A DNA stretch of 58,324 nucleotides from Gammaproteobacteria bacterium (GTDB lineage Bacteria; Pseudomonadota; Gammaproteobacteria; Xanthomonadales; Wenzhouxiangellaceae): the NCBI GenBank assembly GCA_003560975.1, contig PWJA01000017.1, positions 1-58,324 of the forward strand, read 5' to 3'. Each line of letters starts with the position of its first letter. Positions within the stretch are counted from its first letter, which is position 1. This document shows, in pieces, positions 2,286 to 22,505 of the stretch. The notes beneath the pieces were generated by a model that was given only the letters and a program-made list of their open reading frames with translations, was not told the DNA's origin and did not search any database. A program made the position numbers and the translations under genes.

Positions 2286-4514
2286 ATGTACAAACCTGCC
2301 CCATTGCCGCTGGCAGCTGCCATTTCCTGCGCCCTGGCTTTTCCCGTATCCGCGTCCGCCCAGGTGGACGACGCTGCGCCCGAAACAGCTGATCGAATCC
2401 TGGTCCTGGCCGACCCGCTCGGCGATCGCGGGCCCGATGAACTGGTCCGTCCGGTCACCGTCGTGCTCGGTGATGAACTCGAGCGCCGCCGGGCCGCGAC
2501 CCTGGGTGAAGTGCTCGACGGCCTGCCCGGCGTGGCCAATTCCGATTTCGGCCCGGGCGTGGGCCGGCCGGTGGTTCGCGGACTGCAGGGTTCGCGGGTG
2601 CAGGTGCTCGAAGACGGCATGGGCACGTCCGATGTTTCGCGCGAGGGCGCCGATCACGCCATCGGCATCGACCCCGGCCGCGCCGAGCAGGTCGAGGTCT
2701 TTCGCGGCCCGGCCACGCTGCTGTACGGGAGTGGCGCCGCCGGTGGGGTGGTCAACGTGGTCAGCCGCCGCTTCGCGCCGGAATTCGCCGATGCCCTGCG
2801 CGTCGACGGCCGTTTTTCCTATGGGTTCAACGGCAATGACAAGCAGGGCCGGCTGGCGCTGGACGCGCCGCTGAGCACGGATTTCGTTCTTCGGGCCGAC
2901 TACAACATCCGGCGCACCGACGATTTCGACATCAACGGGTTCCAGCAGGTCGGCCAGACCGCCGGCAACGAAGACACGCTGCGCATCAGCAGCATTGATA
3001 CCGACTCGGCTTCGTTGACCGGCCTGGTCCGCGGCGACTGGGGCTTTTTCGGCCTCGGCGTGAGCTACTGGGATACCGATTACGGGATTCCGGAAAACTT
3101 CGACGCTCGACCGCGCGAACTGGGCGGTCAGAGCGATGATTTCGAGCGCGTGGTTGCCGACTCTCTGCGTTTCGATCTGCGCGGCGAATGGTACCAGCCG
3201 CTGCCGGGCTTCAGCGCGGCCCGCCTGAAGATGTCCTACACCGATTTCGAGCAGGAAGAGGCGGAGTTCGAGTTCGACCGCAGCCCCGCCGGCGGTTTTC
3301 TCGACGAGCGCGTGGTCGAGGCACAGTTCGAAAACCAGGAGTGGGACACGCGCCTGGAGCTGGTCCATGACCCGATCGCCAACTGGCGCGGCGTGGTCGG
3401 CCTGCAGTACACCGACCGGGACTTCGAGGCCGATGACCCCAGGGGCGTGGAGCGCGGCTTTTACGTGCGCCCGAACGTGACCCGCACCCTGGCCGGTTTT
3501 GTTCTGGAAGAGCTGCCGACCGATTTCGGCAGGATCGAACTGGGTGCCCGCGTCGAGCGTGTCCGCTCCAATCCGGAAGACGTGATCGGCTCGCGCGTCC
3601 AGGGCATTACCCAGGCTGACGGCAGCTTCCTGCCCTTGCCGGAACGGCTGGATACGCAGAGCTTCACGCCGTTCAGCCTGTCGGCCGGAGCGGTGGTGGA
3701 CCTGGGCACGGACTACCATCTGCGCGCGGTCGTGACTCACGCCGAGCGGGCGCCGTCGCCGGAGCAGCTGTTCGCCTTTGGTCGGCACGCCGCCGCCGGT
3801 ACCTTCGAGGTCGGCGATCCGAACCTGGACAAGGAGGGATACACCAACTTCGAGCTGGGCTTTGACCGTCACCTGGGATCGTTTCGCTTCGATGCCACGG
3901 CCTTTTACAACCGGGTCAACGACTTCATTTTCCTGGCCTCCGAAGACGACGGCACCGGCAGCCCGGTTGGCGTCAACGACATCGGCAATCGTGCCGGCGA
4001 GGGTGCGGCGGCCGGTTGCGCCCCGGGTGATGGCGGTCTGTGCCGTCTGCGCAACCAGCTGGTGGTCAACCAGCAGGCCAACGCCGAGTTCTACGGCGTG
4101 GAGTTCAACGCCGTCTCGCAGGTGGCCACCGGCCGCATTCCGCTGGATTTCCGGGTCAGCGGCGACTACGTTCGCGGCAAGCTGCGCAGCGGCGGGAATC
4201 TGCCCCGCATCACCCCGATGCGCCTGGGGTTTGGCTTCGATACCCGCTTTACGGACTGGGATCTGTCGATCGATTTCCAGCGCGTGTTCCGCCAGACCAG
4301 CACCGCCGAGGCCGAAAGCGAGACCGGCAGCTACAATCTGATCGGCTTCGATCTGTTCTGGCAGCCGGTGCTGTTCGGCAACGCCCAGCTGTTCCTGCAG
4401 GGCCGCAACCTGCTCGACGAGGACGGCCGCCGCCACCAGAGCTTCTTCAAGGAAGACGCCCCGATCATCGGCCGTTCGTTTACCACCGGACTGCGTTTCC
4501 AGTACGGCGGATAG
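2286..4514 (+). CDS. TonB-dependent receptor, ZnuD-like (probable zinc uptake)
   Basis: Signal peptide; plug TLGEVLDGLPGV..GRPVVRGL; DVSREGADHA and GRHAAAGTFEVG His motifs; C-terminal GRSFTTGLRFQY; GGAGA RBS. Confidence 0.85.
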   Translation: MYKPAPLPLAAAISCALAFPVSASAQVDDAAPETADRILVLADPLGDRGPDELVRPVTVVLGDELERRRAATLGEVLDGLPGVANSDFGPGVGRPVVRGLQGSRVQVLEDGMGTSDVSREGADHAIGIDPGRAEQVEVFRGPATLLYGSGAAGGVVNVVSRRFAPEFADALRVDGRFSYGFNGNDKQGRLALDAPLSTDFVLRADYNIRRTDDFDINGFQQVGQTAGNEDTLRISSIDTDSASLTGLVRGDWGFFGLGVSYWDTDYGIPENFDARPRELGGQSDDFERVVADSLRFDLRGEWYQPLPGFSAARLKMSYTDFEQEEAEFEFDRSPAGGFLDERVVEAQFENQEWDTRLELVHDPIANWRGVVGLQYTDRDFEADDPRGVERGFYVRPNVTRTLAGFVLEELPTDFGRIELGARVERVRSNPEDVIGSRVQGITQADGSFLPLPERLDTQSFTPFSLSAGAVVDLGTDYHLRAVVTHAERAPSPEQLFAFGRHAAAGTFEVGDPNLDKEGYTNFELGFDRHLGSFRFDATAFYNRVNDFIFLASEDDGTGSPVGVNDIGNRAGEGAAAGCAPGDGGLCRLRNQLVVNQQANAEFYGVEFNAVSQVATGRIPLDFRVSGDYVRGKLRSGGNLPRITPMRLGFGFDTRFTDWDLSIDFQRVFRQTSTAEAESETGSYNLIGFDLFWQPVLFGNAQLFLQGRNLLDEDGRRHQSFFKEDAPIIGRSFTTGLRFQYGG

Positions 4515-4589: not shown

Positions 4590-6143
4590 TCAGCCGCCGA
4601 AATCCTCGTGCAGCCAGTTTCGCAGCCGGTCCATGGGCGCGGCGGTGGCGGGCTCGCCCGGAACGAGTCCGTCGACGAATCCGCGCTTTCTGAACGGCTC
4701 GATCAGATCCGGGTTGGCGGCGATCACGTGCACCGGCACCGCGGCGCTGGCTTCGTGGCCGGTGATCAGGGCGGCCGGCTGGTGATCGCCGAGCAGGATC
4801 AACACAGTGTCCTCGGTCAGGAAGCGCGCGGCGTAGTCGAGGCTCACCTCCAGCGAATACGCGACGCTCAATGCATAGTGCTCGCGCACGCGCTCGATGT
4901 CCTGCCACAACAGCTGCGGCGGATCGCCTGCGTTGCGCCACGGTTCGAAGACCGAGCCGTCCCCGATCGTTTCCCAATCAGGCACCGGATCGATCACCGG
5001 CGTCCACGGTGCATGGCTGCTGATCAGGGCAATCTTGGCAAACAGCGGACGGGTCGCGCCCGGCCGCAGTACGGTCTGGAAATGGTGCAGCGTGTACTGA
5101 TCGGGCATGGTGACCCAGTTCAGAGGCGGTCCGGCATAGCCGAGATCGCGGGCCGCGGCGATCCGCTCATATCCCAGCTGAGTGCCCTCCGGCCAGGCCA
5201 TGGTGATGGCCGGGACCACCGCCAGGGTGGCATGACCGGTGGCGTGGAAGTCATCGATCAGCGTATTGCGGTGCGAGTCCAGCAACAGCCGGTACCAGAG
5301 CTGGTTGTCGATCCAGCGCCCGCTCAGCGCGGTGGCATGGGCCAGCCAGGACTGACCGCCCCGGATCGGGGCCTCGAGGAGGCCTGTGACCACATTCAAG
5401 CCGGCCTGCTCGAGTCGCGGCGCCATTCGCTCCAGGGCCGGATCCACGATTTCGCGATAGCGCTGCTGGTCGAATACCGAGATCCCGTAGGACTCGATGA
5501 ATACCAGCAGGACGTCCTTGTCGGCCAGCCCGGGCAGCGGCGTGGCCGGCCGCTCTTCGGCTGGTGACGCGGCCTCGAACTCGGCCCGGGCCCGATGCGT
5601 TGCGCCGACCTGGGCAAGCTGGAACGTCAGCGTGTCCCAGACGGGGGTGCGCGCCACCGCAAGTGGACGCTGGCCGAAAATTTCGAGCGTCGCCATGGCC
5701 AGGGAGCCGACGGCCAGCAGCGCGGCGAGCGCGAGGGCAGGCCCGGTCCGTGCGCGTGCCGGGTGCAGCGCCAGGGCGAGCAGCATGCTCAGCCCGATCA
5801 GCAGGGCGATCACCGTGGCCGTGACCGCCAGCGCGCCGGCGCGGCCAATGTTGCCGTCGAGCAGGTTGAACCCGGCGCCGATCAGAATGACGTCGAGATA
5901 GGCGTTGAGTGGCCGACTGAGGACCTGATGGGTAGCGCCGTCCCCAAAACCCAGCACCAGGGCCGTCAGCAGCACCCCGACCAGCAGCCAGCGCACAAAT
6001 CGCAGCACCGGCCGGTCGGGAGCCAGCGCGAAAGCGCCGACCAGGAACCAGGCCTCCCAGGCCAGCCAGCGACCCTCTCCGATCCCGAATCGCAGCCACA
6101 GCGGAGCGATGAGCAGGAAATTGACCACCAGGCCCCAACTCAA
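4590..6143 (-). CDS. Membrane-anchored sulfatase/alkaline-phosphatase-superfamily protein (LTA synthase/OpgB/EptA-like architecture)
   Basis: Several N-terminal TM segments, then FIESYG, GGQSWLAH, SSHAPW and LGDHQP metal/nucleophile motifs. The start is uncertain (TTG; see finding on the upstream TAA). Confidence 0.75.
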   Translation of the reverse strand: MSWGLVVNFLLIAPLWLRFGIGEGRWLAWEAWFLVGAFALAPDRPVLRFVRWLLVGVLLTALVLGFGDGATHQVLSRPLNAYLDVILIGAGFNLLDGNIGRAGALAVTATVIALLIGLSMLLALALHPARARTGPALALAALLAVGSLAMATLEIFGQRPLAVARTPVWDTLTFQLAQVGATHRARAEFEAASPAEERPATPLPGLADKDVLLVFIESYGISVFDQQRYREIVDPALERMAPRLEQAGLNVVTGLLEAPIRGGQSWLAHATALSGRWIDNQLWYRLLLDSHRNTLIDDFHATGHATLAVVPAITMAWPEGTQLGYERIAAARDLGYAGPPLNWVTMPDQYTLHHFQTVLRPGATRPLFAKIALISSHAPWTPVIDPVPDWETIGDGSVFEPWRNAGDPPQLLWQDIERVREHYALSVAYSLEVSLDYAARFLTEDTVLILLGDHQPAALITGHEASAAVPVHVIAANPDLIEPFRKRGFVDGLVPGEPATAAPMDRLRNWLHEDFGG

Positions 6144-6233
6144 CAGTTATGCGATACCGGGCCAGCGCACGGTGACGGGAGACTTCACGACGGTAAACGA
6201 TCATTTGCGGTAATGACCCATCGTTACACGAAC

Positions 6234-7793
6234 ATGCTCAGCAAGCGCGTGAATGCCGGCCGGGAGCTGAAGATCGTTCTGGCCCTGGCCTGGCTGGCCG
6301 GAGGTTCGAACCCGGCGTGGGCCGAACCCATGGCCCAGGTGATCGAGCGCGCCCAGGACCTGGCGGCCAGCGAATGGCGGGCGCCAGTCCCGGTCCATCC
6401 GGAGCTTGCGGCGCTGGATTACGATGCCTATCGAGCCATCCGCTATGACCCGGATCAGGCCCTGTGGAGTGATTCCGGGCCTTTTCACATCCAGTTCTTT
6501 CACCCGGGCTTTCTGTACAACGAGGTGGTGCTCATTCATGAGGTGGACGGGAAGGTCGTCCGCCGAGTGCCGTTCGATCCGGCCCGGTTTTCCTTTGACC
6601 CGCCCCTGGATGGTCCGCCCCTGCAATCCGATGCCGCCGGAGGCCATGCCGGTTTTCGCGTTCACTACCCCATCAACCGAGCCGACCGGCGTGACGAGTT
6701 CCTGGTTTTTCTGGGCGCGTCCTACTTTCGCCTGATCGGCCGCGATCAGGTCTACGGTCTGTCGGCGCGCGGCCTGGCTCTGGACAGCGGCGGTCCGGGG
6801 GCCGAGGAGTTTCCGGTCTTTCGCGAATTCTGGATGATCCGACCAGACCACGATGCCGATGCCCTGGTTGTGCTGGCGCTGCTCGACAGCCCCTCGGTCA
6901 CCGGCGCCTATCGCTTTGAAGTCCGGCCCGGCGATCCCTCGTCGATCGACGTCGATGCGCACCTGTTCGCCCGCGAGGACCTGGTTCGACCGGGCATCGC
7001 GCCGCTGACCAGCATGTACACCCACGGCGACATGGGTCCGTTTCTGGCCGATGATTTCCGGCCGCGGGTGCATGACTCCGACGGGCTGATGGTGATCAGC
7101 AGCCGCGGCGAGACCCAGTGGCGGCCGCTTTCGAATCGGGCCAGGGTCCGGATCGCCACGTTTGTCGACGATGCTCCGCCGCGCGGGTTCGGCCTGCTTC
7201 AGCGCCGCCGCGACTGGGTCGACTTTCAGGACCTGGAGGCGCGCTACGAGCGCCGCCCGGGGCTGTGGGTGGAGCCGCTGGCCGGCGACTGGCGCGGCGG
7301 TCGCGTGGAGCTGGTGGAGATTCCGACCGCCGATGAAACACACGACAACATCGTCGTGTTCTGGGTGCCCGATGAGCCGGTGGAAGCCGGCCAGTCGCGC
7401 CATTTCGCGTATCGCCTGACGACCGTGGGGAAGAAGGATCCTTCGGACGAGCCCGCGCGGGTCCATGCAACCCGCACGGGCCGGGCCGGCCTGCCCGGAC
7501 AGGAGCGCTGGCGGCAGCGCGCGCAGCGCCGATTCGTGATCGATTTCCAGGGACGCGCGCTGCCCGGGGATGGGTCCATCGAGCTGTCCGCCACGGCCAG
7601 TGCCGGCGAAATTCTCGAGGCTCGGCTGGAACGGCTGCCCGAGGAACACTCGCTGCGCGCGGTCATCGCCCTGGACCCGGATCCCGACGGCATGCCGTCG
7701 GATCTGCGCGTCTTCCTGCACCGCGACGGTGCGCCGCTATCGGAGGTCTGGACGTATGTCTGGTACCCGGATGAACTCGACCATCACCTTTGA
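6234..7793 (+). CDS. mdoG: Periplasmic glucan biosynthesis protein, OpgG/OpgD family
   Basis: LDYDAYRAIRY, FLGASYFR, QVYGLSARGLALD, EEFPVFREFW, RPRVHDSDGL, DETHDNIV, SEVWTY. Start trimmed from ORF 5595 to the ATG before a Sec-type signal (alternative ATG 6213). Confidence 0.92.
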   Translation: MLSKRVNAGRELKIVLALAWLAGGSNPAWAEPMAQVIERAQDLAASEWRAPVPVHPELAALDYDAYRAIRYDPDQALWSDSGPFHIQFFHPGFLYNEVVLIHEVDGKVVRRVPFDPARFSFDPPLDGPPLQSDAAGGHAGFRVHYPINRADRRDEFLVFLGASYFRLIGRDQVYGLSARGLALDSGGPGAEEFPVFREFWMIRPDHDADALVVLALLDSPSVTGAYRFEVRPGDPSSIDVDAHLFAREDLVRPGIAPLTSMYTHGDMGPFLADDFRPRVHDSDGLMVISSRGETQWRPLSNRARVRIATFVDDAPPRGFGLLQRRRDWVDFQDLEARYERRPGLWVEPLAGDWRGGRVELVEIPTADETHDNIVVFWVPDEPVEAGQSRHFAYRLTTVGKKDPSDEPARVHATRTGRAGLPGQERWRQRAQRRFVIDFQGRALPGDGSIELSATASAGEILEARLERLPEEHSLRAVIALDPDPDGMPSDLRVFLHRDGAPLSEVWTYVWYPDELDHHL

Positions 7794-9627
7794 CCGACGC
7801 CGCCGGCTGTTTCTGGCACTGGTCGGCGGAACCGGCCTGGCCGGGCTGATCGGTCTGTTTCTGGCCCTGGCCGAAGCGGGCGTGAGTCTGATCGCTCGGG
7901 TTCCGCTGGCCCTGTTGTTCGCGCTGACGTTCACCTGGATTGCGGTTTCCTTCTGGCACGCGGTGATCGGATTTTTCCTCGAGCTGTTGCAGCCCAACCG
8001 GTCCGGTCGGGACCGGTCGGTCGACGCCCCTGCGCGATTGCGCCCGCATCGTACAGCCCTGGTCATGCCCATTCACAATGAGGATCCGGACCGCGTCGTG
8101 GCCGGTTTGAGGGCCATGGCCGAGTCCCTCCGGCGCTCCCGGGCGGGCGAGGGCTTCGAATTCTTTGTCCTCAGCGATACACGCGATGCACTGATCCTGC
8201 AGGCCGAGCGTTCAGCCATCGCGGCGCTGCAAAGCGAGCTGGAGGGGCAGGTGCCGCTTCACTATCGTCATCGCCCCGACAACTCCGGGCGCAAGGCGGG
8301 CAACCTGGCCGATTTCTGCCGGCGCTGGGGGCGACGCTATCAGTTCATGCTCGTGCTCGACGCCGACAGCGTCATGGATGCATCCTGCATGCTGCGGCTG
8401 GTTCGTGCCATGCAGCGCGACGCCGCTGTCGGCCTGATCCAGACCGTACCCATCCCGGTCGGTCAGACCAGCCTGTTTGCCCGCCTGATGCAGTTTGCCG
8501 CGGCCGTGTATTCGCCCATGCTGGCGCGCGGGCAGGCCTTCTGGCAAGGGCACATCGGCAACTACTGGGGCCACAACGCGCTGGTCAGAATGACCGCGTT
8601 CATGGACGCCTGCGGTTTGCCGGAGTTGCCGGGCAGACCGCCGCTGGGCGGCGAAATTCTCAGCCACGACTTCGTTGAGGGCGCGCTGCTGTGCCGTGCC
8701 GGCTGGAAGGTCGAACTGGACACCGCGAGCCTGGTCAGCCATGAGGAAGTTCCGGCCAACCTGATCGATTTTGCCGCCCGCGATCGGCGCTGGATGCAGG
8801 GCAACCTGCAGCACCTGAAGTTGCTGCGCATGCCGGGACTGCATCCGAGCAGCCGCCTCCATTTTCTGTTCGGCGCGGTCGCCTATCTGTCGTCGCTGGC
8901 CTGGCTGGGGCTGCTGCTGCTCGGTGCGATGACCATGGTGCTGCATGCGCCCGGCGCTGCCGCGGAGCCGTCGCCAGGGCCGGGGCTGTTCGCGATGACC
9001 ATGCTTCTGACCACGCTGGCGCTCCTGTTCGGACCGCGCCTGCTGGGTCTGAGCCTCGCGCTGCTGCGCCGGCCCGGCGCTTTTGGCGGTCGTCTGCGGC
9101 TGGCAGGCAGCGGCCTGCTGGAAGCGCTGGCCGGGATTCTGCTCGCTCCGGTGATGATGCTGTTTCATGCCCGCTTCGCGCTGGAAATCCTGTCCGGGTC
9201 CAGCGTCGGCTGGTCTTCCCCGCCGCGTGGTGACCGGCCGGTCTCGGCCGCCCTGGCGTTGGCCCGAACCTGGGGGATGGCGGCTGTCGGCCTGGCATGG
9301 CTTGTTTTGGCCGCGACCCTGACCCCGCACTATCTGTGGTGGATGAGCCCGGTCTGGCTGGGGCTGCTGCTGGCTCCGCTGGCGGCCTGGGCCTCCGGCA
9401 GCCGGGCGCTGGGTCTGGCCTTGCGCCGGCCGGGGCTGCTGCTGACGCCCAGCGAAACGGGCCCGCCGGAAGTCGTGCGTGCCGCCTTCCAGCGCAGGCC
9501 TCAGATCACCGGGAGATTGGCTCCGCAGCGGCCGCCGCGCGAACGACCCGGTCCGATGCCCATCCAGCGCGTTCTGCCGGCTCGAGACCTGGTCCGGGCA
9601 GCGGGGTACGATCGGGTTCGTGTCTGA
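7771..9627 (+). CDS. mdoH: Glucans biosynthesis glucosyltransferase OpgH (short form)
   Basis: MPIHNEDP, RKAGNLADFCRRWG, VLDADSVM, GNYWGHNAL, LSHDFVE, RDRRWMQGNLQH. ATG 7771 overlaps the end of mdoG. Confidence 0.93.
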   Translation: MNSTITFDRRRRLFLALVGGTGLAGLIGLFLALAEAGVSLIARVPLALLFALTFTWIAVSFWHAVIGFFLELLQPNRSGRDRSVDAPARLRPHRTALVMPIHNEDPDRVVAGLRAMAESLRRSRAGEGFEFFVLSDTRDALILQAERSAIAALQSELEGQVPLHYRHRPDNSGRKAGNLADFCRRWGRRYQFMLVLDADSVMDASCMLRLVRAMQRDAAVGLIQTVPIPVGQTSLFARLMQFAAAVYSPMLARGQAFWQGHIGNYWGHNALVRMTAFMDACGLPELPGRPPLGGEILSHDFVEGALLCRAGWKVELDTASLVSHEEVPANLIDFAARDRRWMQGNLQHLKLLRMPGLHPSSRLHFLFGAVAYLSSLAWLGLLLLGAMTMVLHAPGAAAEPSPGPGLFAMTMLLTTLALLFGPRLLGLSLALLRRPGAFGGRLRLAGSGLLEALAGILLAPVMMLFHARFALEILSGSSVGWSSPPRGDRPVSAALALARTWGMAAVGLAWLVLAATLTPHYLWWMSPVWLGLLLAPLAAWASGSRALGLALRRPGLLLTPSETGPPEVVRAAFQRRPQITGRLAPQRPPRERPGPMPIQRVLPARDLVRAAGYDRVRV

Positions 9628-10399
9628 GTCCTTGAAAAGTCGCTACGGGCTGCTGCGCTCGCTGCTGATCTACCGGCGTCCGGGACGCCAGCGATCCCTG
9701 CGGCGCTTGTACCGCCCCTTTGTTCAGGCCGGCGACCTGGTCTTCGACGTCGGCGCCCACCTGGGCGACCGGGCCAGCGCCTTTGCCGGTCTGGGTGCAC
9801 AGGTTGTGGCTCTGGAACCACAGCCGCGCCTGCATGCCTGGCTCGAGCGCCTGACCCGGGGTTCCGGGCGCGTGACCTGTCTGCCGCTGGCGCTGGGCGC
9901 TGCACCCGGCCGGATGAGTCTGACCAGCAGCCGGGTCAACCCGACCGTGGCCAGTCTGTCGACCTCGTGGCGCGCCCAGGTCAGCCAGGCCGGGGCCGGC
10001 TTCGACAGGGTCGACTGGGACGAGTCCGTCTCCGTCGAAGTCACGACCCTGGATGCATTGATCGCCCGTTTCGGCGAACCGGCATTCTGCAAGATCGATG
10101 TGGAAGGGTTCGAGGCCGAAGTCCTGGCCGGGCTGTCGCGCCCGCTGGCGGCGCTGTCGCTGGAGTTCGTCCAGGGCGCCCTGGATCGGACACTGGCGTG
10201 CGTCGATCGACTGCAGAGCCTGGCGCCCTACCGGTATCAGGTGGTCGCCGGTGAAGATCGCCGATTCACGCTCGACGGCTGGGTCGATGCCCGATCCATT
10301 CGCCGCTGGCTGGTCGCGGGTGCCGACGGTCTGGCCTCGGGGGATCTGTATGCGCGCCGGGCAGCGCAAGCCGAGTCTGCAGCCGATCGGGTAAGCTGA
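9620..10399 (+). CDS. FkbM family SAM-dependent methyltransferase
   Basis: VFDVGAHLG, ALEPQP, KIDVEGFE. GTG 9620 overlaps the mdoH stop. Confidence 0.9.
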   Translation: MSESLKSRYGLLRSLLIYRRPGRQRSLRRLYRPFVQAGDLVFDVGAHLGDRASAFAGLGAQVVALEPQPRLHAWLERLTRGSGRVTCLPLALGAAPGRMSLTSSRVNPTVASLSTSWRAQVSQAGAGFDRVDWDESVSVEVTTLDALIARFGEPAFCKIDVEGFEAEVLAGLSRPLAALSLEFVQGALDRTLACVDRLQSLAPYRYQVVAGEDRRFTLDGWVDARSIRRWLVAGADGLASGDLYARRAAQAESAADRVS

Positions 10400-10428
10400 A
10401 CCCGATCAGCCCCACGGCCCGCTCGCCC

Positions 10429-11229
10429 ATGATTGACGACTGGCAACATCTCACCTCTCCGGAACTGGCCGAACGGACCGGGCCGGACGTGCTGGCGGTG
10501 ATGGCGTTGGGGGCCATCGAACAACACGGTCCGCATTTGCCGCTGTCGACCGATCTGGACATCGCCATGGGCCTGCAGGCGGCCGCCTTGGCGCGGCTGG
10601 ATACCGACCTGAAGGTTCTCGTGTTGCCGCCCATGGCGCTGGGGGCCAGCCAGGAACACGCCGGCTTTGCCGGTACGCTTTCGCTGACCTCCGAGCAGAT
10701 GAGCGCGCAATTGCGCGCGCTCGGCGCCAGCCTGGCCGCGGCCGGGATGCGACGCCTGGTCCTGATCAACGCCCACGGCGGCAACATCGGCTGGCTGGGC
10801 CCGGCCGCGCTGGATCTTCGGGTTCGCTACGGAATGCTGGTGGTCAAGGCCAACTACATGTTGCTGCGCCCGCCGGCCCATGTGCTGGCGGCCGAGGAGT
10901 TGCGCCACGGCCTGCACGGCGGGCAGGCCGAGACGGCAATGATGCTGCATCTGCACCCGGAACGGGTCCGGAGCGGGCGGCTGGATCACTTTCGTTCCTG
11001 CGCCGAGGAGCTTCCGGACACCGCCTTGCTGGGCCCCGAGGGAGAGGCCGCCTGGGCCTGGCGGGCCGAAGACCTCAACCCGCAAGGAGTCGTTGGCGAT
11101 GCCCGCGGGGCGAGTGCGGAAATGGGGCGTGATCTGGTGGACTACTACGCCGACCGGCTGGCCCGGATCATGCGCGAGGCCGCTGGAATGAACCTGGACG
11201 GATTCGCGGCCGAGTCGACTATTTTCTGA
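10429..11229 (+). CDS. Creatininase family amidohydrolase
   Basis: GAIEQHGPHLPLSTD, NAHGGN, HGGQAETA motifs. Confidence 0.92.
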   Translation: MIDDWQHLTSPELAERTGPDVLAVMALGAIEQHGPHLPLSTDLDIAMGLQAAALARLDTDLKVLVLPPMALGASQEHAGFAGTLSLTSEQMSAQLRALGASLAAAGMRRLVLINAHGGNIGWLGPAALDLRVRYGMLVVKANYMLLRPPAHVLAAEELRHGLHGGQAETAMMLHLHPERVRSGRLDHFRSCAEELPDTALLGPEGEAAWAWRAEDLNPQGVVGDARGASAEMGRDLVDYYADRLARIMREAAGMNLDGFAAESTIF

Positions 11230-12352
11230 CCAGCGCCTCGTCCAGCCAGTGACCGGAGCGCGCCGCCTTGGCGGTCAGGTAGCGGCGGTTCTCGTCGGTC
11301 ACCCGGCCAAACAGCTTCTCGCGACCGGCGATCTCGATGCCGCCATCGGCAAGCGCCCGGATCTTGTCCGGGTTGTTGGTCAGCAGACGCACCCGCCGGA
11401 TCTTCAGGGCGGCGAGCATGTCCACGGCCACGCGGTAGCGGCGTTCGTCCTCTCCGAACCCAAGAATCTGGTCGGCTTCGACCGTGTCGTGACCCTGATC
11501 CTGCAGGGTGTAGGCGCGCAGCTTGTTGGCCAGGCCGATGCCGCGTCCTTCCTGGGCGAGGTAGAGGAGCACGCCGCCACCCATTTCGTCGATCGTGCGC
11601 ACGCCCGAGCGCAGCTGTTCGCCGCAGTCGCAGCGCAGGCTGCCGAACAGGTCGCCGGTAAGGCAGGCCGAGTGCAGTCGGACCGGCACATCCTCGGGCC
11701 AGCGATCGGGTGCACCGATCAAAACGGCGACATGTTCGCGCAGGCCGTCGGGTTCTCGAAACAGCACGAAGTGGGCCTCGCTGACTTCGGCCAGGGGGAC
11801 GCGCGCATCGCTGATCCTCTTCAGCAGCCCGGCGCCAAGATCGAAGCAGTGCTCGGCCTCGCGCGCGGGCACGGCCAGCAGTTCGGCGCGATCCACCTGG
11901 GTCTGGAACGCCCGCCGCTGGCGCTCGTCCAGGGTGATGGTCAGGGCTGCGGGCAGGAGCAACGCCCGCCGCATCAGCGCCAGCGCCGCGCGCTCGGGTG
12001 TGGTCGCCGGGCGGGCATCGCCGAACAGGTTCGCAGCCGGCGCGCCGTTTCCGCAGGCGGCTTCGACCACATCGCTGGCTCTGAGCTGGCCGCGTCCGCT
12101 CTGGAACGGCAGGCAGGCGGCCTCGGCGCGAACGGTCACGCCCAGGCGGGCAAGGCGATGACGGCTGACCACCAGGCCGCACGCCGGGGTCGATGCCGAG
12201 CCGTTCGGCAGATCGGAATCGTTCAGGCCTTCGATCGGCTGCACGAGAACGCTGGTGCCCTTTTCGTCATCAACGATCACCGCGACCCCGCGGCGCAGGT
12301 CGAATATTGCCCTCTCGATCTGTTGCATGTGCTGTGCCCGTAAAACAAACAC
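11219..12352 (-). CDS. ribA: GTP cyclohydrolase II with degenerate N-terminal RibB-like region
   Basis: RLHSACLTGDLFGSLRCDCG, QEGRGIGLANKLRAY, LLTNNPDK, KAARSGH; alternative start ATG 12328. Confidence 0.92.
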   Translation of the reverse strand: MFVLRAQHMQQIERAIFDLRRGVAVIVDDEKGTSVLVQPIEGLNDSDLPNGSASTPACGLVVSRHRLARLGVTVRAEAACLPFQSGRGQLRASDVVEAACGNGAPAANLFGDARPATTPERAALALMRRALLLPAALTITLDERQRRAFQTQVDRAELLAVPAREAEHCFDLGAGLLKRISDARVPLAEVSEAHFVLFREPDGLREHVAVLIGAPDRWPEDVPVRLHSACLTGDLFGSLRCDCGEQLRSGVRTIDEMGGGVLLYLAQEGRGIGLANKLRAYTLQDQGHDTVEADQILGFGEDERRYRVAVDMLAALKIRRVRLLTNNPDKIRALADGGIEIAGREKLFGRVTDENRRYLTAKAARSGHWLDEALVRK

Positions 12353-12423
12353 CTGTTACGGTAATGTGACCGCAGGCGTCGGGGTGTGAATGTCGCAGTG
12401 ACCAAGCGCAGGAGTCCAAGCGT

Positions 12424-13257
12424 ATGCCAGTCAGCCAACCCGTCTGGGACCTGATCCTCGCCGTTCACGCGTTCGACTGGTCCGACCGTGTCGAACAGGT
12501 GTTCCGGCTCGCTGATTCGGGAATCACGGTACGGCGGGGCGGCAGCTGGGTGGCCGACGCCGCGCTCTGCGAGGCGGACCGGGATCTGCTCGATGCCCTC
12601 CTGCCCCTGGCCGCCTGTCGCGGCCGGCTCGCCATCGCCCAGCTTGGTCAGAGTCTGGACGGCAGGATTGCAACGGAGACCGGCGATTCCTGGTACATCA
12701 ATGGCCAGGAGGCGCGCACCCATCTGCATCGCCTGCGAGCGCTCGTCGACGCCGTGCTCGTCGGTGCCGGCACGGCCGCGCAGGACCGACCCAGGCTGAC
12801 CGTGCGCCACGCGACCGGATCCGATCCGGTGCCGGTCATCCTCGACCCGCGCGGTCGCGTCGAACCGGGCGGGCCGCTGTTTGAAGGCCGCCGCCACGCG
12901 CCCCCAACCCTGCACCTGGTCGGCGAGGGCGTGCGCCTGCCCAGGCCGCCGTCCGGCGTGGAGCGGATCTTCGTTTCGTCCAGCGGCGGGGAGGTGGCGC
13001 CGCAGGAGGTTCTGGACCGGCTGGCCGAGCGGGGGCTGGAGCGCGTTCTCGTCGAGGGCGGCGGAGTGACCGTGTCTCGCTTCGTCGCCGCCGACAGCCT
13101 CGACCGACTGCACCTGCTCATTGCTCCCCTGCTCATCGGCTCGGGGCGACCCGGCCTGACGCTGCCGCCGATCGAGCGCTTGAGCGACGCCCGCCGTCCG
13201 CCGATCCGGAGTTTTCGGCTTGCCGATGAGCTACTGGTTGACGTGTGCTTTCGCTGA
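12424..13257 (+). CDS. RibD C-terminal (reductase-only) family protein
   Basis: QLGQSLDGRIA, HRLRALVDAVLVGAGT, DRPRLTVR, LVEGGG; no HAE..PC..C deaminase motif. Confidence 0.9.
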   Translation: MPVSQPVWDLILAVHAFDWSDRVEQVFRLADSGITVRRGGSWVADAALCEADRDLLDALLPLAACRGRLAIAQLGQSLDGRIATETGDSWYINGQEARTHLHRLRALVDAVLVGAGTAAQDRPRLTVRHATGSDPVPVILDPRGRVEPGGPLFEGRRHAPPTLHLVGEGVRLPRPPSGVERIFVSSSGGEVAPQEVLDRLAERGLERVLVEGGGVTVSRFVAADSLDRLHLLIAPLLIGSGRPGLTLPPIERLSDARRPPIRSFRLADELLVDVCFR

Positions 13258-14148
13258 CCAACCGAAGGCCAGCACCGCTGCCCCGGGCAGGCTGGCCAGC
13301 AGGACGGTTACGCCATAGGCCAGGGATGCGGCCACGCCCTGTTCAGGCGCCAGCCCGCCGGCCAGCCAGACCGCCGCCGCCGCCCCTTCGCGGAATCCCC
13401 AGCCGGCGACGGTCAGCGGAACCAGCATGGCCAGCAGCACCGGAAGCGCCATCAGCATCAGTGCGACAAGCGGCAGTTCGACACCGATTGCGCGCGCGCA
13501 GGCGGCAAAAACCAGCAGGTAGCTGAACACGATCAGAAGCGAGCTGCCCAGCTGCCGCGGCCAGGCGTCCCGGGCCAGCAGGGCGCGGGCGACGTCGCGC
13601 CGGAGGATGGCCAGCAGCGGCTGCCAGCGCGCCCGCAGGATGACGATCATGGCAGCGAGCACCGCCAGCCCCAGCCCCAGCGGCCAGGGCGCTCCGCCGT
13701 GCGGGGCGGCCAGCAAGGTTTCACGCCATGGTCGGTAGGTCACCAGGGCCAGGCCGGCCAGGCCGAGCACGACCAGCTGACCGGAGGCCCGCTCCAGAAT
13801 CACCGCACGCCAGGCCGGGCCGCTGTGGCCGCTGGCGCGGGCATGACGCTGCGCACGCCAGGCATCGCCGAGCACCCCGCCCGGCACGACCTGGTTGATG
13901 AACCCGGCCAGGTAATAGTCGGCCAGCGCGGTTCGCGTTTCCAGGCTCAGCCCGAGGCGGCCGGCAGTGAAGCGCCAGCGCCATGCCGATAGCGCGGTCT
14001 GGGCGGTGGCGACAAGCAGCGCCAGGCCCAGCCAGCCGGGTTCGAAGCGCGTGATCTCGGCCGCGATACGCTCCGGTTCCAGCCAGGTCAGCAGCGCAGT
14101 CAGCACCGTCAGGCTGATGACCCAGCGCAGCCATGGGCGCGCCCTCAT
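13231..14148 (-). CDS. Lysylphosphatidylglycerol-synthase TM (flippase-like, YbhN/UPF0104) membrane protein
   Basis: SAWRWR, FINQVVPGGVLGDAWRA, VILER, PLTVAGWGFREG; multi-TM. Confidence 0.88.
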   Translation of the reverse strand: MRARPWLRWVISLTVLTALLTWLEPERIAAEITRFEPGWLGLALLVATAQTALSAWRWRFTAGRLGLSLETRTALADYYLAGFINQVVPGGVLGDAWRAQRHARASGHSGPAWRAVILERASGQLVVLGLAGLALVTYRPWRETLLAAPHGGAPWPLGLGLAVLAAMIVILRARWQPLLAILRRDVARALLARDAWPRQLGSSLLIVFSYLLVFAACARAIGVELPLVALMLMALPVLLAMLVPLTVAGWGFREGAAAAVWLAGGLAPEQGVAASLAYGVTVLLASLPGAAVLAFGWSAKAHVNQ

Positions 14149-14993
14149 GCGACCGGCAGCGCCAGTACGTCGACGTGTCCGACCTCCAGCCCCAGCTGCC
14201 CGAGGTCCAGCCTGGCGCGGCGCCGCTCGTGCCAGTGCCGGATGCGGTCGCTCTGGTCCGGTCTCTGCTCGTCGGCGGCCTGGCGCCAGCCGTCCAGCAG
14301 CATGCCGCCCAGGGCTCGGGTCGATGCCGATCCGGCGGGCAGAACCCAGTCGCTGGTCCGGGTCGTGACGGAAAAACCGTGCGCGGTCAGGATGCGCGGC
14401 AGTGCCTCTGCGGCCTGCGCCCCCAGGGCCGCACCGAGGCCCTTGTCGCGGCGCTGGTGAGCGTTGAAGCTGCTGCGGACGAACGCGTCGTCGCTGTCCT
14501 GGTCGCGGTCACCGCGCGCGTCGACAAATCGCCAGCGCCCGTCCACGCTCAGGGCGAACAGGCCGGCAATTCGGGCTGCGGCGCAGGCCTCGGCCAGGTG
14601 TTCGATCCAGTCGGCCGAGACCAGGTCGAACCAGGCCGAGGCGGTCACCAGCGCGGCGTCCATTAGCCAGGGGAAATCCGACCGGGCGAGGTCGGCCTCG
14701 ATGGTTTCGATCTCGAGGATCCGGGCCGGCGGGTCACGGCGGGCGTGCTCGCGAGCCGCGCGCAGCAGGCGCGGGTCGCGGTCAATCAAGCGCCAGTGTT
14801 GGGGCCGCTGCAGGCGTGGGGCGAGCCAGCGCAGGTTGCTGCCGTGACCGGCGCCCAGGTCGATGACGTTCAGCGGGTTGGAAGCGGGCAGCGCTGCGAT
14901 CAGCGGTTCCAGCAGCGCTTCCGAGCGAGCCGCGTGATCGGCCGGCTCGCGCCGGCTGAGCCAGTCGCTGCTGAATTCATGATCGGGACTCAT
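14145..14993 (-). CDS. Class I SAM-dependent methyltransferase-like protein
   Basis: FSSDWLSRREPADHAARS, IDLGAGHGSNLR, LVTASAWFDLVS, FNAHQRRDKG. ATG 14993 overlaps the GT4 stop (trimmed from ORF 15686). Confidence 0.85.
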   Translation of the reverse strand: MSPDHEFSSDWLSRREPADHAARSEALLEPLIAALPASNPLNVIDLGAGHGSNLRWLAPRLQRPQHWRLIDRDPRLLRAAREHARRDPPARILEIETIEADLARSDFPWLMDAALVTASAWFDLVSADWIEHLAEACAAARIAGLFALSVDGRWRFVDARGDRDQDSDDAFVRSSFNAHQRRDKGLGAALGAQAAEALPRILTAHGFSVTTRTSDWVLPAGSASTRALGGMLLDGWRQAADEQRPDQSDRIRHWHERRRARLDLGQLGLEVGHVDVLALPVA

Positions 14994-16060
14994 CGCTGCT
15001 CCAGTACTTGCGCAAAGCGCCGGGCGCTGTCGGTCCACGAGGGCAAGCGCCCGCGCCAGGTCGCCGCGCCCTCGGTCAGCGCCCGTCTGAGCTGCGGCTC
15101 GTCCAGCCACCGGCTCAGGGCCCGGCGTAGGGCTTTGTGGTCGTTCGGCGGGATCTTCAGACCGGCCCCGTCGGGCAGGGTATCGGCGAGTGCACCGCCG
15201 GTGGTGGAGATCACCGGCAGCCCGCGCGCCAGCGCTTCGGTGATGACCATCCCGTAGCCCTCGTAGCGCGAGGGCAGAACACAGACCGTGGCCCAGGCGT
15301 AATCGGCTTCCAGCGCGGCCGGTTCGCGCTCGCCGGGCAGCTCGACCCGCGGTTCCAGTTCCAGGCAGCGGCGCTGTTGTTCGATCCGCCGGGCAAAGGC
15401 CGGATCGCGCCGGGTCGAGCCGCTCAAGCGGGCGCACCAGCCCGTCGATTCCAGCCCGGCCAGGGCGGCGAGCAGGAGGTCCTGGCCCTTGCGCGGGGTC
15501 AGGCTGGCCACGCACAGCAGATGTTCCCGTGCGGGCTCCGGGTGGCCGTCCAGGCGCGCCTTTACCGCCGGCGCCAATTCGGCCGGCGCGACTCCGGGTT
15601 CGACGACGAAGGCTTTGCGCCGGCTCAAACCCAGGACCTGGAGACGGCGCGCGGTGAAGGGGCTGGTGACGATGATGCGTCGGCACAGCGCGAGCGCCCG
15701 TCGTTCCGAATCCAGCAGCCGCTGCCGTGCGTGCTCGTCCAGGCCGGTCTCGTCGGCCAGGGGATGATGGACGAGCGCGCTCAGGTCCAGCCGTCGGGCG
15801 TGGGGCAGCACCGCCGCGGGCACCGCGCCCAGGGCCAGGCCGTCGATGACGACGGCGTCGCCGTCGTCGAGCCCCTCCAGAGCAGCCGCCATCGCTCCGG
15901 CGGCAACGTCATCGGCCAGCGGAAACTCGCCGGCAAGACCGACCACCCGCACCTGCCAGCCGCGGGCGCGCAGTTCCTGCGTGATGCGGCGGTCGTACAG
16001 GTAGCCGCCGGTGCGCTGCTCCGGATCGCCGGGAACGATCAGGGTGAGCGTCTGGCTCAA
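14990..16060 (-). CDS. Glycosyltransferase family 4
   Basis: [37 protein letters not shown] (EX7E motif). Confidence 0.92.
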
Positions 16061-16455
16061 AGCGCGCCTTCGAAGCTGGCCCAGGCGAGGTGAGATTCCT
16101 TGAGCGACACCTTCAACCCGCTCAGGCCCGTGGCCGCCGGCCCCAGCCGACCGTCGTGCACGGCCTGGGCGAGGCGGTCGAAAATCACTCTGGCCATGAA
16201 CTCGGTGGTGGTGTTGCGGCCGCGGAAGGCTTCGATTTCGTCGAGGTTGCGGTAGTTGTAGTCGGCCAGGATTTCGGCCAGAACCTGGCCGGCCAGGCCG
16301 ATATCGACGATCAGGTCGTCCTCGTCCAGGGCCTCGCGCCGGAAGCTGGCGTCGACCACGTAGGTCGCGCCGTGCAGCTTCTGCGCCGGGCCGAAGATCT
16401 CGCCGCGGAAGCTGTGGGCAATCATGAAGTGGTCGCGAACGGTCAGTTCATACAT
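16057..16455 (-). CDS. 6-pyruvoyl-tetrahydropterin synthase/QueD-like T-fold protein (PTPS-IV type)
   Basis: [36 protein letters not shown]; lacks the catalytic Cys of QueD; GAGGA RBS before ATG 16455. Confidence 0.88.
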
Positions 16456-16491
16456 GGGCAATTCCTCAAGCCAGGAAACAGGCGGGTTGGT

Positions 16492-17463
16492 TCAGTACAC
16501 GATCCGATGGCAGAGCACGTCGCCGCCGGACGCGGCCAGCTGCGGCATCCGGGCGGGCAACTCCTCGAAGCGGCTTTCGCCGCTGATGAGGCAGTCCAGG
16601 CAGGGTTCGGCCAGCAGTTCCAGGGCCAGCGCAAGTCGCCGACGGTGGGTCCAGCGCGCGCGCCGCTCGGCCGGCAGCTGCCCGACCTGGCTGGAGCGCA
16701 GGTCGAGTCGGCGGGCGTGGAAGGCTTCCCCCAGCGGTACCGCCGGCGAGCGATCCCCGAACCAGCTGGCCTCGATCACGCGGGCTTCCATGCCGGCACA
16801 GGCCAGGGCCGTGGCCAGGCCGCCCGCGCTGGCGCTGGTGTGGACCACCACGTCCTGATCGGCCGGGGCAGCGTCCGGCTCGGCGAAAGCCACGCCCAGC
16901 GCCTCGGCGGTGGCCGCGCGCACCGGCTGCAGATCGACCAGGGTGACCCGCGTGCCGGGGATGCGCCCGGCCAGCCAGGCGACCAGGCAGCCGACCACCC
17001 CGGCGCCGATCACGCAGACCCGATCGCCCGGCGCGATGCCGGCATCCCAGACCACGTTCAGCGCCGTTTCGGCGTTGGCCGCCAGAACCGCGCGTTCGGG
17101 TGGCAAGGGTTCGGGCAGGGGCAGCACGGCCGAGGCCGGCACCACGTAGCGATCCTGGTGCGGATACAGGCAGAACACCGTTTGGCCGCACAGTTCGGCC
17201 GGACCCTGCTCGACCTCGCCCACGCTGGCATAGCCGTACTTGACCGGGCCGGGAAACTCGCCGGCCTGAAACGGGGCGCGCATGGTCTGGTACTGGCTGG
17301 GCGGTACGCCGCCGCGAAAGACCAGCGCCTCGGTGCCCCGGCTGATGCCGCTGAAGCGGGTCCGGATCCGGGCCTGGTCTGCGGCCGGATCGGCCAGAGT
17401 TTCGGTGCGCAGCTGGCCGCGTCCGGGCTCCATGACCCAGAAAGCCTGTGCCTGGAACGTCAT
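16492..17463 (-). CDS. Medium-chain dehydrogenase/reductase (Zn-ADH-like fold)
   Basis: SGISRGTE, GYASVG, VIGAGVVG Rossmann motif, FHARRL..SSQVG. Confidence 0.88.
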   Translation of the reverse strand: MTFQAQAFWVMEPGRGQLRTETLADPAADQARIRTRFSGISRGTEALVFRGGVPPSQYQTMRAPFQAGEFPGPVKYGYASVGEVEQGPAELCGQTVFCLYPHQDRYVVPASAVLPLPEPLPPERAVLAANAETALNVVWDAGIAPGDRVCVIGAGVVGCLVAWLAGRIPGTRVTLVDLQPVRAATAEALGVAFAEPDAAPADQDVVVHTSASAGGLATALACAGMEARVIEASWFGDRSPAVPLGEAFHARRLDLRSSQVGQLPAERRARWTHRRRLALALELLAEPCLDCLISGESRFEELPARMPQLAASGGDVLCHRIVY

Positions 17464-17564
17464 GCGGATTGCCCCGCAGGTTGGCAAGTCGAACCTCTCA
17501 TCGCCATAGGATTGTTGATGGACGGTGAGGTCGGCGTTGACGCCAATTTACAAGCTCTGCTGGC

Positions 17565-18338
17565 ATGGTAGCGGGTATGAGTCGGGAATCTGCCTTTCAT
17601 TCTGCGATAGTGCCACGACCGGTGTCCAAACCGATCGCCGCCTGGCTGTGGCCGGCAGCGGTTGTGCTGGCGGTCGCCTCGGGGCTGTTGCTGTTTGACG
17701 CGGAGTGGAAGATCCTGGCCGCTGCGTTGGCGGCGCATACCCTGTTGAGTGTCTGGGTGGCCGGTCTGCGGCGCCGACATGCGGCGCCGTTCGGGCCGGC
17801 AAGCCAGGTCACGCTGGTCCGCGCCGGGCTGGTTGCCGTCCTTGCCGTCGCCCTGATGCAGCCCGAGTGGTTCCGCGCCCACGCCTGGCTGATGGCAGCG
17901 CTGGCCTTATCCGTCCTGATTCTGGACGGCGTGGACGGCTGGCTGGCGCGTCGGCGGGCTGAGACCAGCACGTTCGGCGCCCGCTTCGACATGGAAGTCG
18001 ATGCGGCGCTGATTGCCGTGTTGTGCCTTGCCCTGGCGATCACCGGCAAGGCTGGGTTCTGGGTGCTGGCCATCGGCCTGATGCGCTATGCGTTCGTCGG
18101 CGCGGCCTGGATCTGGTCGTGGCTCGACGCACCCCTGCCGCCAAGTTTCCGGCGCAAGCTGGTCTGCGTCTGGCAGGTAGCGGCGCTGCTGGTCTGCCTG
18201 ACCCCGCTGGTCGGGGCTGCGACGACGACTCCCATTCTGGGGTCGGCGCTGGTCTTGCTGGCGGCCTCGTTCGCGATCGATGTCGCCTGGTTGCAGCGGC
18301 GGGCGGCTGATTCCCAATCACAAAAGGAGACGTCATGA
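17565..18338 (+). CDS. CDP-alcohol phosphatidyltransferase family protein
   Basis: LDGVDGWLARRR...FGARFDMEVD signature; multi-TM; start uncertain (17565, 17577 or later). Confidence 0.92.
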   Translation: MVAGMSRESAFHSAIVPRPVSKPIAAWLWPAAVVLAVASGLLLFDAEWKILAAALAAHTLLSVWVAGLRRRHAAPFGPASQVTLVRAGLVAVLAVALMQPEWFRAHAWLMAALALSVLILDGVDGWLARRRAETSTFGARFDMEVDAALIAVLCLALAITGKAGFWVLAIGLMRYAFVGAAWIWSWLDAPLPPSFRRKLVCVWQVAALLVCLTPLVGAATTTPILGSALVLLAASFAIDVAWLQRRAADSQSQKETS

Positions 18339-18919
18339 AACCCCTTGTCTGTGCAATCGTTACCGCGGGAATGTTCGCCGCGGGCCTGGCTCAGGCCGAG
18401 CCGCGCGAATTCAAGATCGACGAGGAACACTTTTCCGTCGGTTTCCTGGTCGACCACGTCGGCTTTGCCGATCAACTGGGCATGTTTCTGGAAGCCAGCG
18501 GCGAGTTCGTCTGGGACGAGGAAGCAAACGAGCTTCACGGCGGCCATGTCGTGGTCCAGGCCGACAGCGTGTTCACCAACCATGACCGCCGCGACCGCCA
18601 CGTGCGCAGCGGCGATTTTCTCAACGCACGGCGTCATTCGGACATCCGGTTCGAGGCCGGCGCCTGGGAACCGACCGATGATCATCGCGGAACCCTGCAC
18701 GGTGATCTGACGCTGCTCGGCCAGACCCATCCGGTGGCGCTGGACGTCACCATCAACCGCCGGGCCGATTATCCCTTCGGCCACGAGCGCTACACCGTGG
18801 GCATGTCGGTACGGACCACCATCGAGCGCAGCCAGTGGGGCATGACCTACGCCCTGGAAGACGGCCTGGTTGGCGACGAGGTCGAGCTGATCCTGGAGTT
18901 CGAGGCGCTCGCGCAGTAA
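18335..18919 (+). CDS. YceI family periplasmic lipid/polyisoprenoid-binding protein
   Basis: Signal peptide, IDEEHFSVGF, RDRHVRSGDFLN, GDLTLLGQTHPV, RSQWGM; AGGAG RBS; ATGA overlap with the upstream gene. Confidence 0.9.
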   Translation: MKPLVCAIVTAGMFAAGLAQAEPREFKIDEEHFSVGFLVDHVGFADQLGMFLEASGEFVWDEEANELHGGHVVVQADSVFTNHDRRDRHVRSGDFLNARRHSDIRFEAGAWEPTDDHRGTLHGDLTLLGQTHPVALDVTINRRADYPFGHERYTVGMSVRTTIERSQWGMTYALEDGLVGDEVELILEFEALAQ

Positions 18920-22476: not shown

Positions 22477-22505
22477 TTGCATAAACAATGCATTTGCATT
22501 ACCAT
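22477..22505 (+). promoter_or_regulatory. Sigma70 promoter of prlF-yhaV with overlapping palindromic operator
   Basis: TTGCAT (22477-82), 17-bp spacer, TACCAT (22500-05); palindrome AATGCA-TT-TGCATT at 22487-22500. Confidence 0.7.

Follow-up and report, generated by a model that had tools for sequence, protein, structure and literature searches.

What is made by the orphan gene cluster that is built around PTPS-IV proteins, and why do genes for osmoregulated periplasmic glucans (OPGs) lie within it in some bacteria? The question is raised by a stretch of 58,324 nt from a gammaproteobacterium of the family Wenzhouxiangellaceae (contig PWJA01000017.1, assembly GCA_003560975.1), called the window from here on, in which a cluster of 14 genes (4590..18919) combines a RibA-type GTP cyclohydrolase II and a PTPS-IV protein with mdoG, mdoH and a sulfatase-like membrane enzyme. 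An original prediction, made from the sequence of this DNA, had read the locus as a pathway that decorates periplasmic glucans with a GTP-derived unit. This idea stands in part: the genomic co-occurrence and the fold and residues of the transferase speak for it, whereas the glucan genes proved to be an optional module and no intact GTP cyclohydrolase II other than the window RibA was found in its genome.

The reading that we favour, with a confidence somewhat above the midpoint, is that the locus makes a GTP-derived heterocycle (X), glycosylates it, joins it to a phospholipid, flips this lipid and transfers its head group to periplasmic beta-1,2-glucan. Briefly, RibA would open GTP to a ribosylamino-pyrimidinone phosphate, an activity predicted from its residues, and the creatininase would remove leftover formyl groups. 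RibD-C, PTPS-IV, the dehydrogenase and the class I methyltransferase would then yield X, presumed to be diffusible in view of a locus variant with an importer. The family 4 glycosyltransferase (GT4) would glycosylate X, the CDP-alcohol phosphatidyltransferase (CDP-AP) would join the product to CDP-diacylglycerol, giving a phosphatidyl-X-glycoside, and the PF03706 protein would move this lipid across the inner membrane. Finally, the LtaS-like enzyme would, via Ser265, pass the head group to a glucan that MdoH synthesizes and MdoG shapes, an acceptor suggested by co-occurrence; the step is modelled on OpgB/OpgE and their transfer of phosphoglycerol and phosphoethanolamine. The FkbM methyltransferase would likely O-methylate the sugar or the glucan, and in Actinobacteria the pathway would stop at the lipid. 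What was observed, as described below, is the content in genes, their motifs, the folds and the co-occurrence.

The core is a PTPS-IV cluster of wide distribution

The PTPS protein of the window matches SCO6650 of Streptomyces coelicolor (PDB 3D7J) over all 132 residues (E 2e-53), and its F21-G-P-A-Q25 stretch is invariant in 18/18 aligned proteins. FGPAQ is described as the PTPS-IV signature in an excerpt of PMC5445326. Together with the orthology to SCO6650 and a neighbouring GTP cyclohydrolase II (PF00925), this places the protein in the PTPS-IV subfamily of COG0720. The Cx3-5HGH motif of PTPS-I/II (QueD, tetrahydrobiopterin PTPS) was not found in it: HGH reads HGA and the Cys is missing, with the Glu of TTE retained. 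The core is thus that of the recognised orphan SCO6650/PTPS-IV cluster, which has no assigned product although a structure of the PTPS-IV protein is available, and an open-access literature search on PTPS-IV and the SCO numbers returned passing mentions only.

PTPS-IV motifs were matched by an estimated ~8,700 stretches among 185,579 species genomes. The locus survey was based on the best 80 PTPS-IV loci, with flanks of 10 kb that undercount the far end of the cluster. Dehydrogenase and GT4 were found in all 80, the methyltransferase in 75, CDP-AP in 73, the flippase-like protein in 55, RibA and creatininase in 48 each, RibD-C in 42, the transferase in 20, FkbM in 16, mdoG in 10 and mdoH in 6. 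The closest of these 80 loci, from a Wenzhouxiangella record, has 81% PTPS identity and an identical gene order. Thirty loci were actinobacterial, with mdoG, mdoH and YceI in 0/30, the transferase and FkbM in one each and RibD-C in four. A cytochrome b561 recurs in the clusters of Pseudomonadota of other classes and of Gemmatimonadota (at least 13 loci, among L032-L045, L064, L069, L100, L118 and L169-L173), at the place where gammaproteobacterial loci have YceI.

The glucan genes are linked to the cluster

The window MdoH scores 693 bits against NF003958 (cut-off 419) and has the D, DxD, D and RxxRW motifs, and MdoG retains the catalytic Asp when aligned to 1TXK and 8IP2; both have the sequence features of OpgGH, from which glucan production is predicted. 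Co-occurrence was assessed in one draw of 400 Pseudomonadota genomes at least 90% complete, 26 of which have a strong PTPS-IV match. MdoH is present in 25/26 of these carriers versus 82/374 other genomes (Fisher p 1e-14, a value that is overstated since kin are not independent). Moreover, mdoH lies within the 20-kb PTPS-IV locus in 13/26 versus 0.16 expected, with unrelated genes between the blocks in two of the 13. Among 24 relatives from the genus, PTPS-IV is found in 14 and mdoG in four, all four at the same place inside the cluster. The order transferase-mdoG-mdoH-fkbM-creatininase-ribA recurs in another family (L028, L126), and transferase-mdoG-mdoH in Gemmatimonadota (L064, L128, L129). 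The neighbourhood survey that the original prediction had proposed thus finds mdoG or mdoH in or beside PTPS-IV clusters of several families and two phyla, and the adjacency is not peculiar to this genome; had it been so, this would have told against the prediction. In five loci (L023, L026, L056, L058, L059), mdoG was seen between transferase and fkbM with no mdoH in the cluster; MdoH was encoded elsewhere in all three genomes checked for mdoG-only clusters.

Protein fusions and phylogeny lead to the same link. Among the best 120 of 362 longer relatives of the window RibA, 99 are MdoH-RibA fusions, which cover 98-100% of it at 40-50% identity. MdoH comes first in 99/99, and since the zinc Cys (99), Tyr (99), Arg (98), DxD (97) and RDxRW (99) are retained, both active sites are essentially intact; the eight fusions with a taxon name are all from Gemmatimonadota. 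Two further proteins fuse RibA to CDP-AP. A tree of 56 MdoH domains (44 from loci and 12 of the 99 fusions; quick search only) puts the window MdoH in a branch of 24 rows (SH-aLRT 98) made up of 12 copies from clusters and 12 from fusions, with none standalone. A second branch (100) consists of one standalone copy and 11 MdoH from clusters that lack MdoG. The link of the glucan genes to the cluster is therefore not a matter of chance. In the open-access literature, we found no paper that links OPG, OpgH or MdoH to RibA or GTP cyclohydrolase.

The transferase has an LtaS/EptA/MCR-1 fold

The transferase has no match in Pfam or NCBIfam and no significant sequence match in PDB; with no family hit in either of the first two databases, it cannot be counted as an OpgB/OpgE orthologue. 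Its structure model (pLDDT 86.5, from 14 sequences) has MCR-1 (E 3e-8), LtaP, LtaS and also EptA as top fold matches. E217, S265, H377, D453 and H454 are invariant in 14/14 sequences, and by motif correspondence we take them to be the Ser nucleophile and the Glu, His and Asp-His metal ligands. By modelled fold, helices and residues, the protein is a predicted phosphoform transferase of the LtaS/EptA/OpgB type, which bears out and narrows the sulfatase-fold membrane enzyme first proposed.

The transferase was found in 18/400 genomes, 17 of them with MdoH and the 18th with a 2,841-residue Cgs-like frame. Within the genus, a Cgs-like cyclic glucan synthase is present in 5/7 transferase-positive genomes without mdoGH, and neither synthase in 5/5 transferase-negative ones. 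A Cgs-like cyclic beta-1,2-glucan synthase is also encoded, in two contig fragments, in the genome of the window (G000:C64, C165), which judging by its genes may make both glucan types. Five mdoGH-less loci of the genus (L011-L015) have a weak GT2-like gene and an unassigned 258-residue gene directly after the transferase, possibly another acceptor pathway.

An importer replaces the upstream genes

Five complete genomes of one family and four genera (G335, G325, G291, G311, G367; L169-L173) have the CDP-AP, transferase, flippase-like and GT4 genes as a block, adjoined in some by cytochrome b561, FkbM, mdoG or mdoH. Within this block sits a ThiY-like ABC importer of the NMT1/THI5 type, which takes the place of the upstream set of RibA, RibD-C, PTPS-IV, dehydrogenase and methyltransferase; no PTPS-IV, cluster-type dehydrogenase, methyltransferase or RibD-C was found in the five genomes. 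The importer subfamily (at least 71% identity) occurs in exactly these 5/400 genomes; in L173, its NMT1-type binding protein is encoded at 7992-8978. G437, a further member of that family, combines the upstream genes with this block and has no importer. Metagenomes gave 41 further copies (L178-L218). Among the 23 loci of at least 10 kb, transferase, CDP-AP and GT4 are found together in 19, and the upstream genes in none. Because the importer replaces the upstream genes, X would be a diffusible and probably pyrimidine-like precursor, with GT4 acting after PTPS-IV.

RibA, the creatininase and riboflavin supply

Aligned to 2BZ0, the window RibA has intact equivalents of the three zinc Cys (C54/C65/C67), Y105 and R128 (E. 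coli numbering), which we take to mark a GTP cyclohydrolase II. No ribE or ribH is present in the window. As the original prediction had suggested checking, a canonical set lies elsewhere: contig C134 of the same genome carries an nrdR-ribD-ribE-ribBX-ribH-nusB-thiL operon, which holds the deaminase, RibB, RibH and RibE that the cluster lacks. Two genus members, G023 (100% complete) and G024 (99%), have the same rib operon and only a cysteine-less RibA copy, so either the genus is independent of the window ribA for riboflavin or these strains are auxotrophs. The window RibA may feed riboflavin too, as a side role. A cysteine-less RibB-RibA fusion was read in three genomes of the same order (L149, L150, L159). 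Most of 16 genomes of that order, as well as G023 and G024, show only a single weak PF00925 match.

The SCO6655-type cyclohydrolase, which produces a formylamino compound, reportedly has Met for Tyr105 (Spoonamore and Bandarian), and the window RibA, with Tyr, is not of that type. Met was found at this position in 25/29 actinobacterial copies, and Tyr in the window and 40/44 non-actinobacterial copies, the other four not being readable by pattern. A creatininase adjoins all 27 non-Tyr actinobacterial copies and not the two with Tyr. By analogy with ArfB/BrbF, a RibA with Met beside a creatininase fits a deformylase role for the latter; ArfB and BrbF are formamidases that are treated, like the archaeal/fungal-type early riboflavin route, in an excerpt of PMC9478397. 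A second creatininase-family gene, 29% identical to that of the window (G000:C187:1-686, minus strand), is a candidate BrbF-like formamidase for riboflavin. In addition, two proteins (P0100, P0103) fuse a window-type RibA to GTP cyclohydrolase I (FolE), in P0100 over 98% of the window RibA, which may indicate a connection to pterin synthesis in some lineages.

Weighing of the explanations

Several observations weigh against the favoured scheme. The glucan genes are an optional terminal module, missing from 30/30 actinobacterial loci and from 10/14 PTPS-IV-positive relatives in the genus. The transferase is missing from 29/30 actinobacterial loci, and four genomes that do have it, G005 (89% complete), G011 (93%), G442 and G448, gave neither glucan synthase. 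The importer loci have mdoG nearby in 3/23 and mdoH in 0/23. On the chemical side, the modelled fold match alone cannot separate glucan from lipid A or other acceptors, and the nearest structures of the importer, which bind thiamine and N-formyl-aminomethyl-pyrimidine, have only 18-20% identity to it, the ligand not being named by the fold search. The importer genomes are one family and not independent cases; the relatives compared are not independent either, and the MdoH-RibA fusion may be one event. Each chemical step, including that of PTPS-IV, is a prediction, and so are the acceptor and the structure of X. Finally, 11 genomes with MdoH alone in the cluster have no cluster-type CDP-AP and no transferase genome-wide, so the lipid route is not the sole link to MdoH. 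These genomes bring in the main rival, in which MdoH may handle X directly as a primer: GT4 would make X-glucose, which a dedicated MdoH would elongate into a beta-1,2-glucan or glycolipid capped with X and then export, with CDP-AP, flippase and transferase as an alternative or additional route. In 10/16 loci of other-class Pseudomonadota and in one uncultured gammaproteobacterial locus, mdoH alone faces the dehydrogenase, L042 being an example of an MdoH-alone locus; such copies form their own branch (11/12 rows cluster-linked), and the fusion places RibA on MdoH itself. We nevertheless consider priming unlikely, given that the window and its branch retain the full lipid route and MdoG, that genus members without MdoH retain the transferase and use a Cgs-like synthase, and that MdoH is missing from all 30 actinobacterial loci.

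Somewhat less probable again is that the cluster joins separate, co-regulated envelope-stress functions, with the GTP module and GT4 making a soluble glycoside of pterin or lumazine type, as an antioxidant or UV screen, and CDP-AP, flippase, transferase and MdoGH placing an ordinary head group on glucans. Cyanobacterial pterin glycosides are known (excerpt of PMC13259868), the loci repeatedly contain cytochrome b561 or YceI, G064 and G437 have the cluster in two separate blocks, and SCO6652 and SCO6655 are listed among late-phase genes in excerpts of PMC3610822 and PMC2853524. However, RibA is fused to MdoH (99 proteins) or CDP-AP (two), the importer lies inside the CDP-AP-transferase-flippase-GT4 unit in just those loci that lack the upstream genes, and CDP-AP is found in 73/80 loci. 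We find it improbable that the GTP genes merely serve a known cofactor, namely riboflavin, for which RibA is missing from the rib operon, or F420. Because the RibB-RibA fusion of the C134 operon (G000:C134:8882-10009) has no zinc cysteines, no intact GTP cyclohydrolase II apart from the window RibA was found in the 99%-complete assembly, which counts against our scheme as well. The original prediction had named it as a point against itself should ribA and ribD be the only copies in the genome; this holds for an intact ribA, while RibD is duplicated. Unpublished work cited in an excerpt of PMC5041015 ties PTPS-IV to F420 synthesis, but CofG, CofD and CofE gave no match each in this genome while the controls were positive, which rules out an F420 role here. 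Full RibD, RibE and RibH are encoded elsewhere, the window has no FMN riboswitch, the near-complete G023 and G024 keep the rib operon without an intact RibA, and GT4, CDP-AP, flippase and fusions would be left unexplained. That mdoGH is a chance neighbour in this genome hardly merits belief: mdoG is found in only 4/14 PTPS-IV-positive genus relatives, but always at the same place, the order recurs in L028, L126 and Gemmatimonadota, and chance adjacency is largely ruled out by the fusions, the presence of MdoH in 25/26 carriers, the MdoH tree and the 13/26 loci versus 0.16 expected.

Organization of the locus

All 14 open frames are uninterrupted, and 13 of the proteins match named Pfam or NCBIfam families, the transferase being the exception and the dehydrogenase matching below the cut-off only (BchC-like, E 6e-13); the gene list first drawn up for this span is therefore sound (Table 1). 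The genes form six strand-alternating units and not a single operon: the transferase (-), mdoG-mdoH-fkbM-creatininase (+), ribA (-), ribD-C (+), dehydrogenase-PTPS-GT4-methyltransferase-flippase-like (-) and CDP-AP-yceI (+). The second unit agrees with the operon that had been proposed, with overlaps of 23 bases (mdoG/mdoH) and 8 bases (mdoH/fkbM) and a gap of 29 between fkbM and creatininase. Overlaps of 4 bases join flippase-like/methyltransferase, methyltransferase/GT4, GT4/PTPS and CDP-AP/YceI.

Table 1. Genes of the cluster, with positions in the window
Product	Position	Strand	Features
LtaS/EptA/OpgB-like membrane phosphoform transferase (predicted)	4590..6143	-	N-terminal membrane helices and alkaline-phosphatase-fold domain; E217, S265, H377, D453, H454 invariant
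MdoG/OpgG-OpgD family periplasmic beta-1,2-glucan enzyme	6234..7793 (alternative start 6213)	+	Asp retained at OpgG D361 position
MdoH/OpgH GT2 glucan synthase	7771..9627	+	LSD, DADS, SHDF, RDRRW motifs; cluster/fusion branch
FkbM-family methyltransferase	9620..10399	+	Accompanies transferase or MdoH across loci
Creatininase-family amidohydrolase	10429..11229	+	Metal motifs intact; likely deformylase
GTP cyclohydrolase II (RibA), degenerate N-terminal RibB-like domain (PRK08815-like)	11219..12328	-	Equivalents of E. coli C54/C65/C67, Y105, R128 intact
Reductase-only RibD-C	12424..13257	+	Top PDB match is 2,5-diamino-6-ribosylamino-pyrimidinone 5'-phosphate reductase (6P8C)
Flippase-like membrane protein (PF03706)	13231..14148	-	Family match
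Class I SAM-dependent methyltransferase (upstream module)	14145..14993	-	Motif/family match
GT4 glycosyltransferase	14990..16060	-	Family match; also in importer variant
PTPS-IV T-fold protein, SCO6650 orthologue	16057..16455	-	FGPAQ motif; third His and catalytic Cys missing; pterin-face Glu retained
MDR-family dehydrogenase, BchC-like	16492..17463	-	Usual zinc cysteine missing at first motif
CDP-alcohol phosphatidyltransferase (CDP-AP), cluster subfamily	17577..18338	+	Family match
YceI periplasmic lipid-binding protein (accessory)	18335..18919	+	Family match; slot held by cytochrome b561 in many other loci

The GC (0.67-0.68) and GC3 (0.80-0.81) of mdoGH match those of the neighbouring genes, so that we reject a recent foreign insertion. 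Since another family shares the gene order, the arrangement is probably an older one that was lost in part later on. Scans of the window for promoters (1 versus 0.9 in shuffles) and terminators (6 versus 6.9) gave no excess over shuffled sequence, and no Rfam match was obtained, including none to the FMN riboswitch.

A TonB-dependent receptor precedes the cluster (2286-4514, +; top match ZnuD-like, below cut-off); one also adjoins it in G005 and G010 and, as a 31% homologue, in G009, G012 and G022. Elsewhere in the window are a PrlF-YhaV toxin-antitoxin pair (22488-23350, +) in a stretch of lower GC (0.60) and, at 35864-51125, genes for an EAL/GGDEF/PAS regulator, GGDEF-hemerythrin, MoeA, ThiF-rhodanese, YqeC and nitrate-reductase-delta proteins, where several long minus-strand frames without a Pfam match may be shadows.

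Implications and comparison with known systems

For the orphan PTPS-IV family, the locus suggests beta-1,2-glucan as a candidate acceptor, a dedicated phospholipid as the carrier and, as the point at which the pathway splits, a diffusible precursor that has an importer of its own. A broader and more tentative proposal, which we hold to be possible yet more doubtful than the scheme itself, is that thousands of species make, or salvage via the ThiY-like importer, a GTP-derived heterocycle that is displayed as an envelope phospholipid head group and, in Gram-negatives, as a nucleobase-like, possibly redox-active glucan substituent kept reduced by cytochrome b561. If true, the compound would be an envelope "cofactor" that species cross-feed to one another, as the salvage importer would imply, and PTPS-IV would have the function that has long been missing for it. 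An excerpt of PMC3818809 names phosphoglycerol, phosphoethanolamine and succinate as OPG substituents; a heterocycle derived from GTP, whether borne by glucans or serving as the head group of a lipid, would, if true, be new envelope chemistry.

The actinobacterial loci of the S. coelicolor SCO6650/SCO6654-SCO6655 type share CDP-AP, dehydrogenase, PTPS-IV, GT4, methyltransferase, flippase-like protein, creatininase and RibA with the window, as seen in Streptomyces and Amycolatopsis. They differ in having mostly Met at Tyr105 of RibA, where the window has Tyr, in lacking mdoG, mdoH and YceI, and mostly also RibD-C, transferase and FkbM. With the archaeal/fungal-type riboflavin route, the window has in common a GTP cyclohydrolase II, a reductase-only RibD-C (top match 6P8C) and a creatininase-family protein, but its cluster has no deaminase, RibB activity, RibH or RibE, and a full rib operon lies elsewhere. 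The pterin glycoside pathways of cyanobacteria (excerpt of PMC13259868) and Chlorobium also start from GTP and use a PTPS-fold protein, an oxidoreductase, a glycosyltransferase and a methyltransferase; theirs, however, employ GTP cyclohydrolase I and a PTPS with Cys and three His, whereas the window has cyclohydrolase II, a PTPS without that site and membrane enzymes downstream.

As for the final step, the model of the transferase resembles LtaS, EptA, MCR-1 and GacH in its metal and nucleophile residues and has whole-chain TM-scores of ~0.5 against MCR-1 and EptA, but identity is 11-14% and the predicted nucleophile of the window enzyme is Ser. The nearest overall parallel is E. coli OpgGH with OpgB/OpgE, where, according to an excerpt of PMC3818809, OpgB and OpgE, with a membrane-anchored architecture, transfer phospholipid head groups to periplasmic glucans. 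The window likewise has an MdoH over the NCBIfam cut-off, an orthologue of MdoG and a periplasmic, membrane-anchored "sulfatase-like" transferase that matches OpgB and OpgE in architecture. It differs in that no named family matches the transferase in sequence, MdoH falls in a distinct branch and fusions of MdoH to RibA occur; moreover, the transferase is accompanied by a CDP-AP, a flippase-like protein and a GTP module of its own, so that a dedicated donor lipid is implied. By analogy, the proposed scheme would thus resemble OpgB/OpgE decoration, but with a transferase that is not an OpgB/OpgE orthologue and a head group that would be new.

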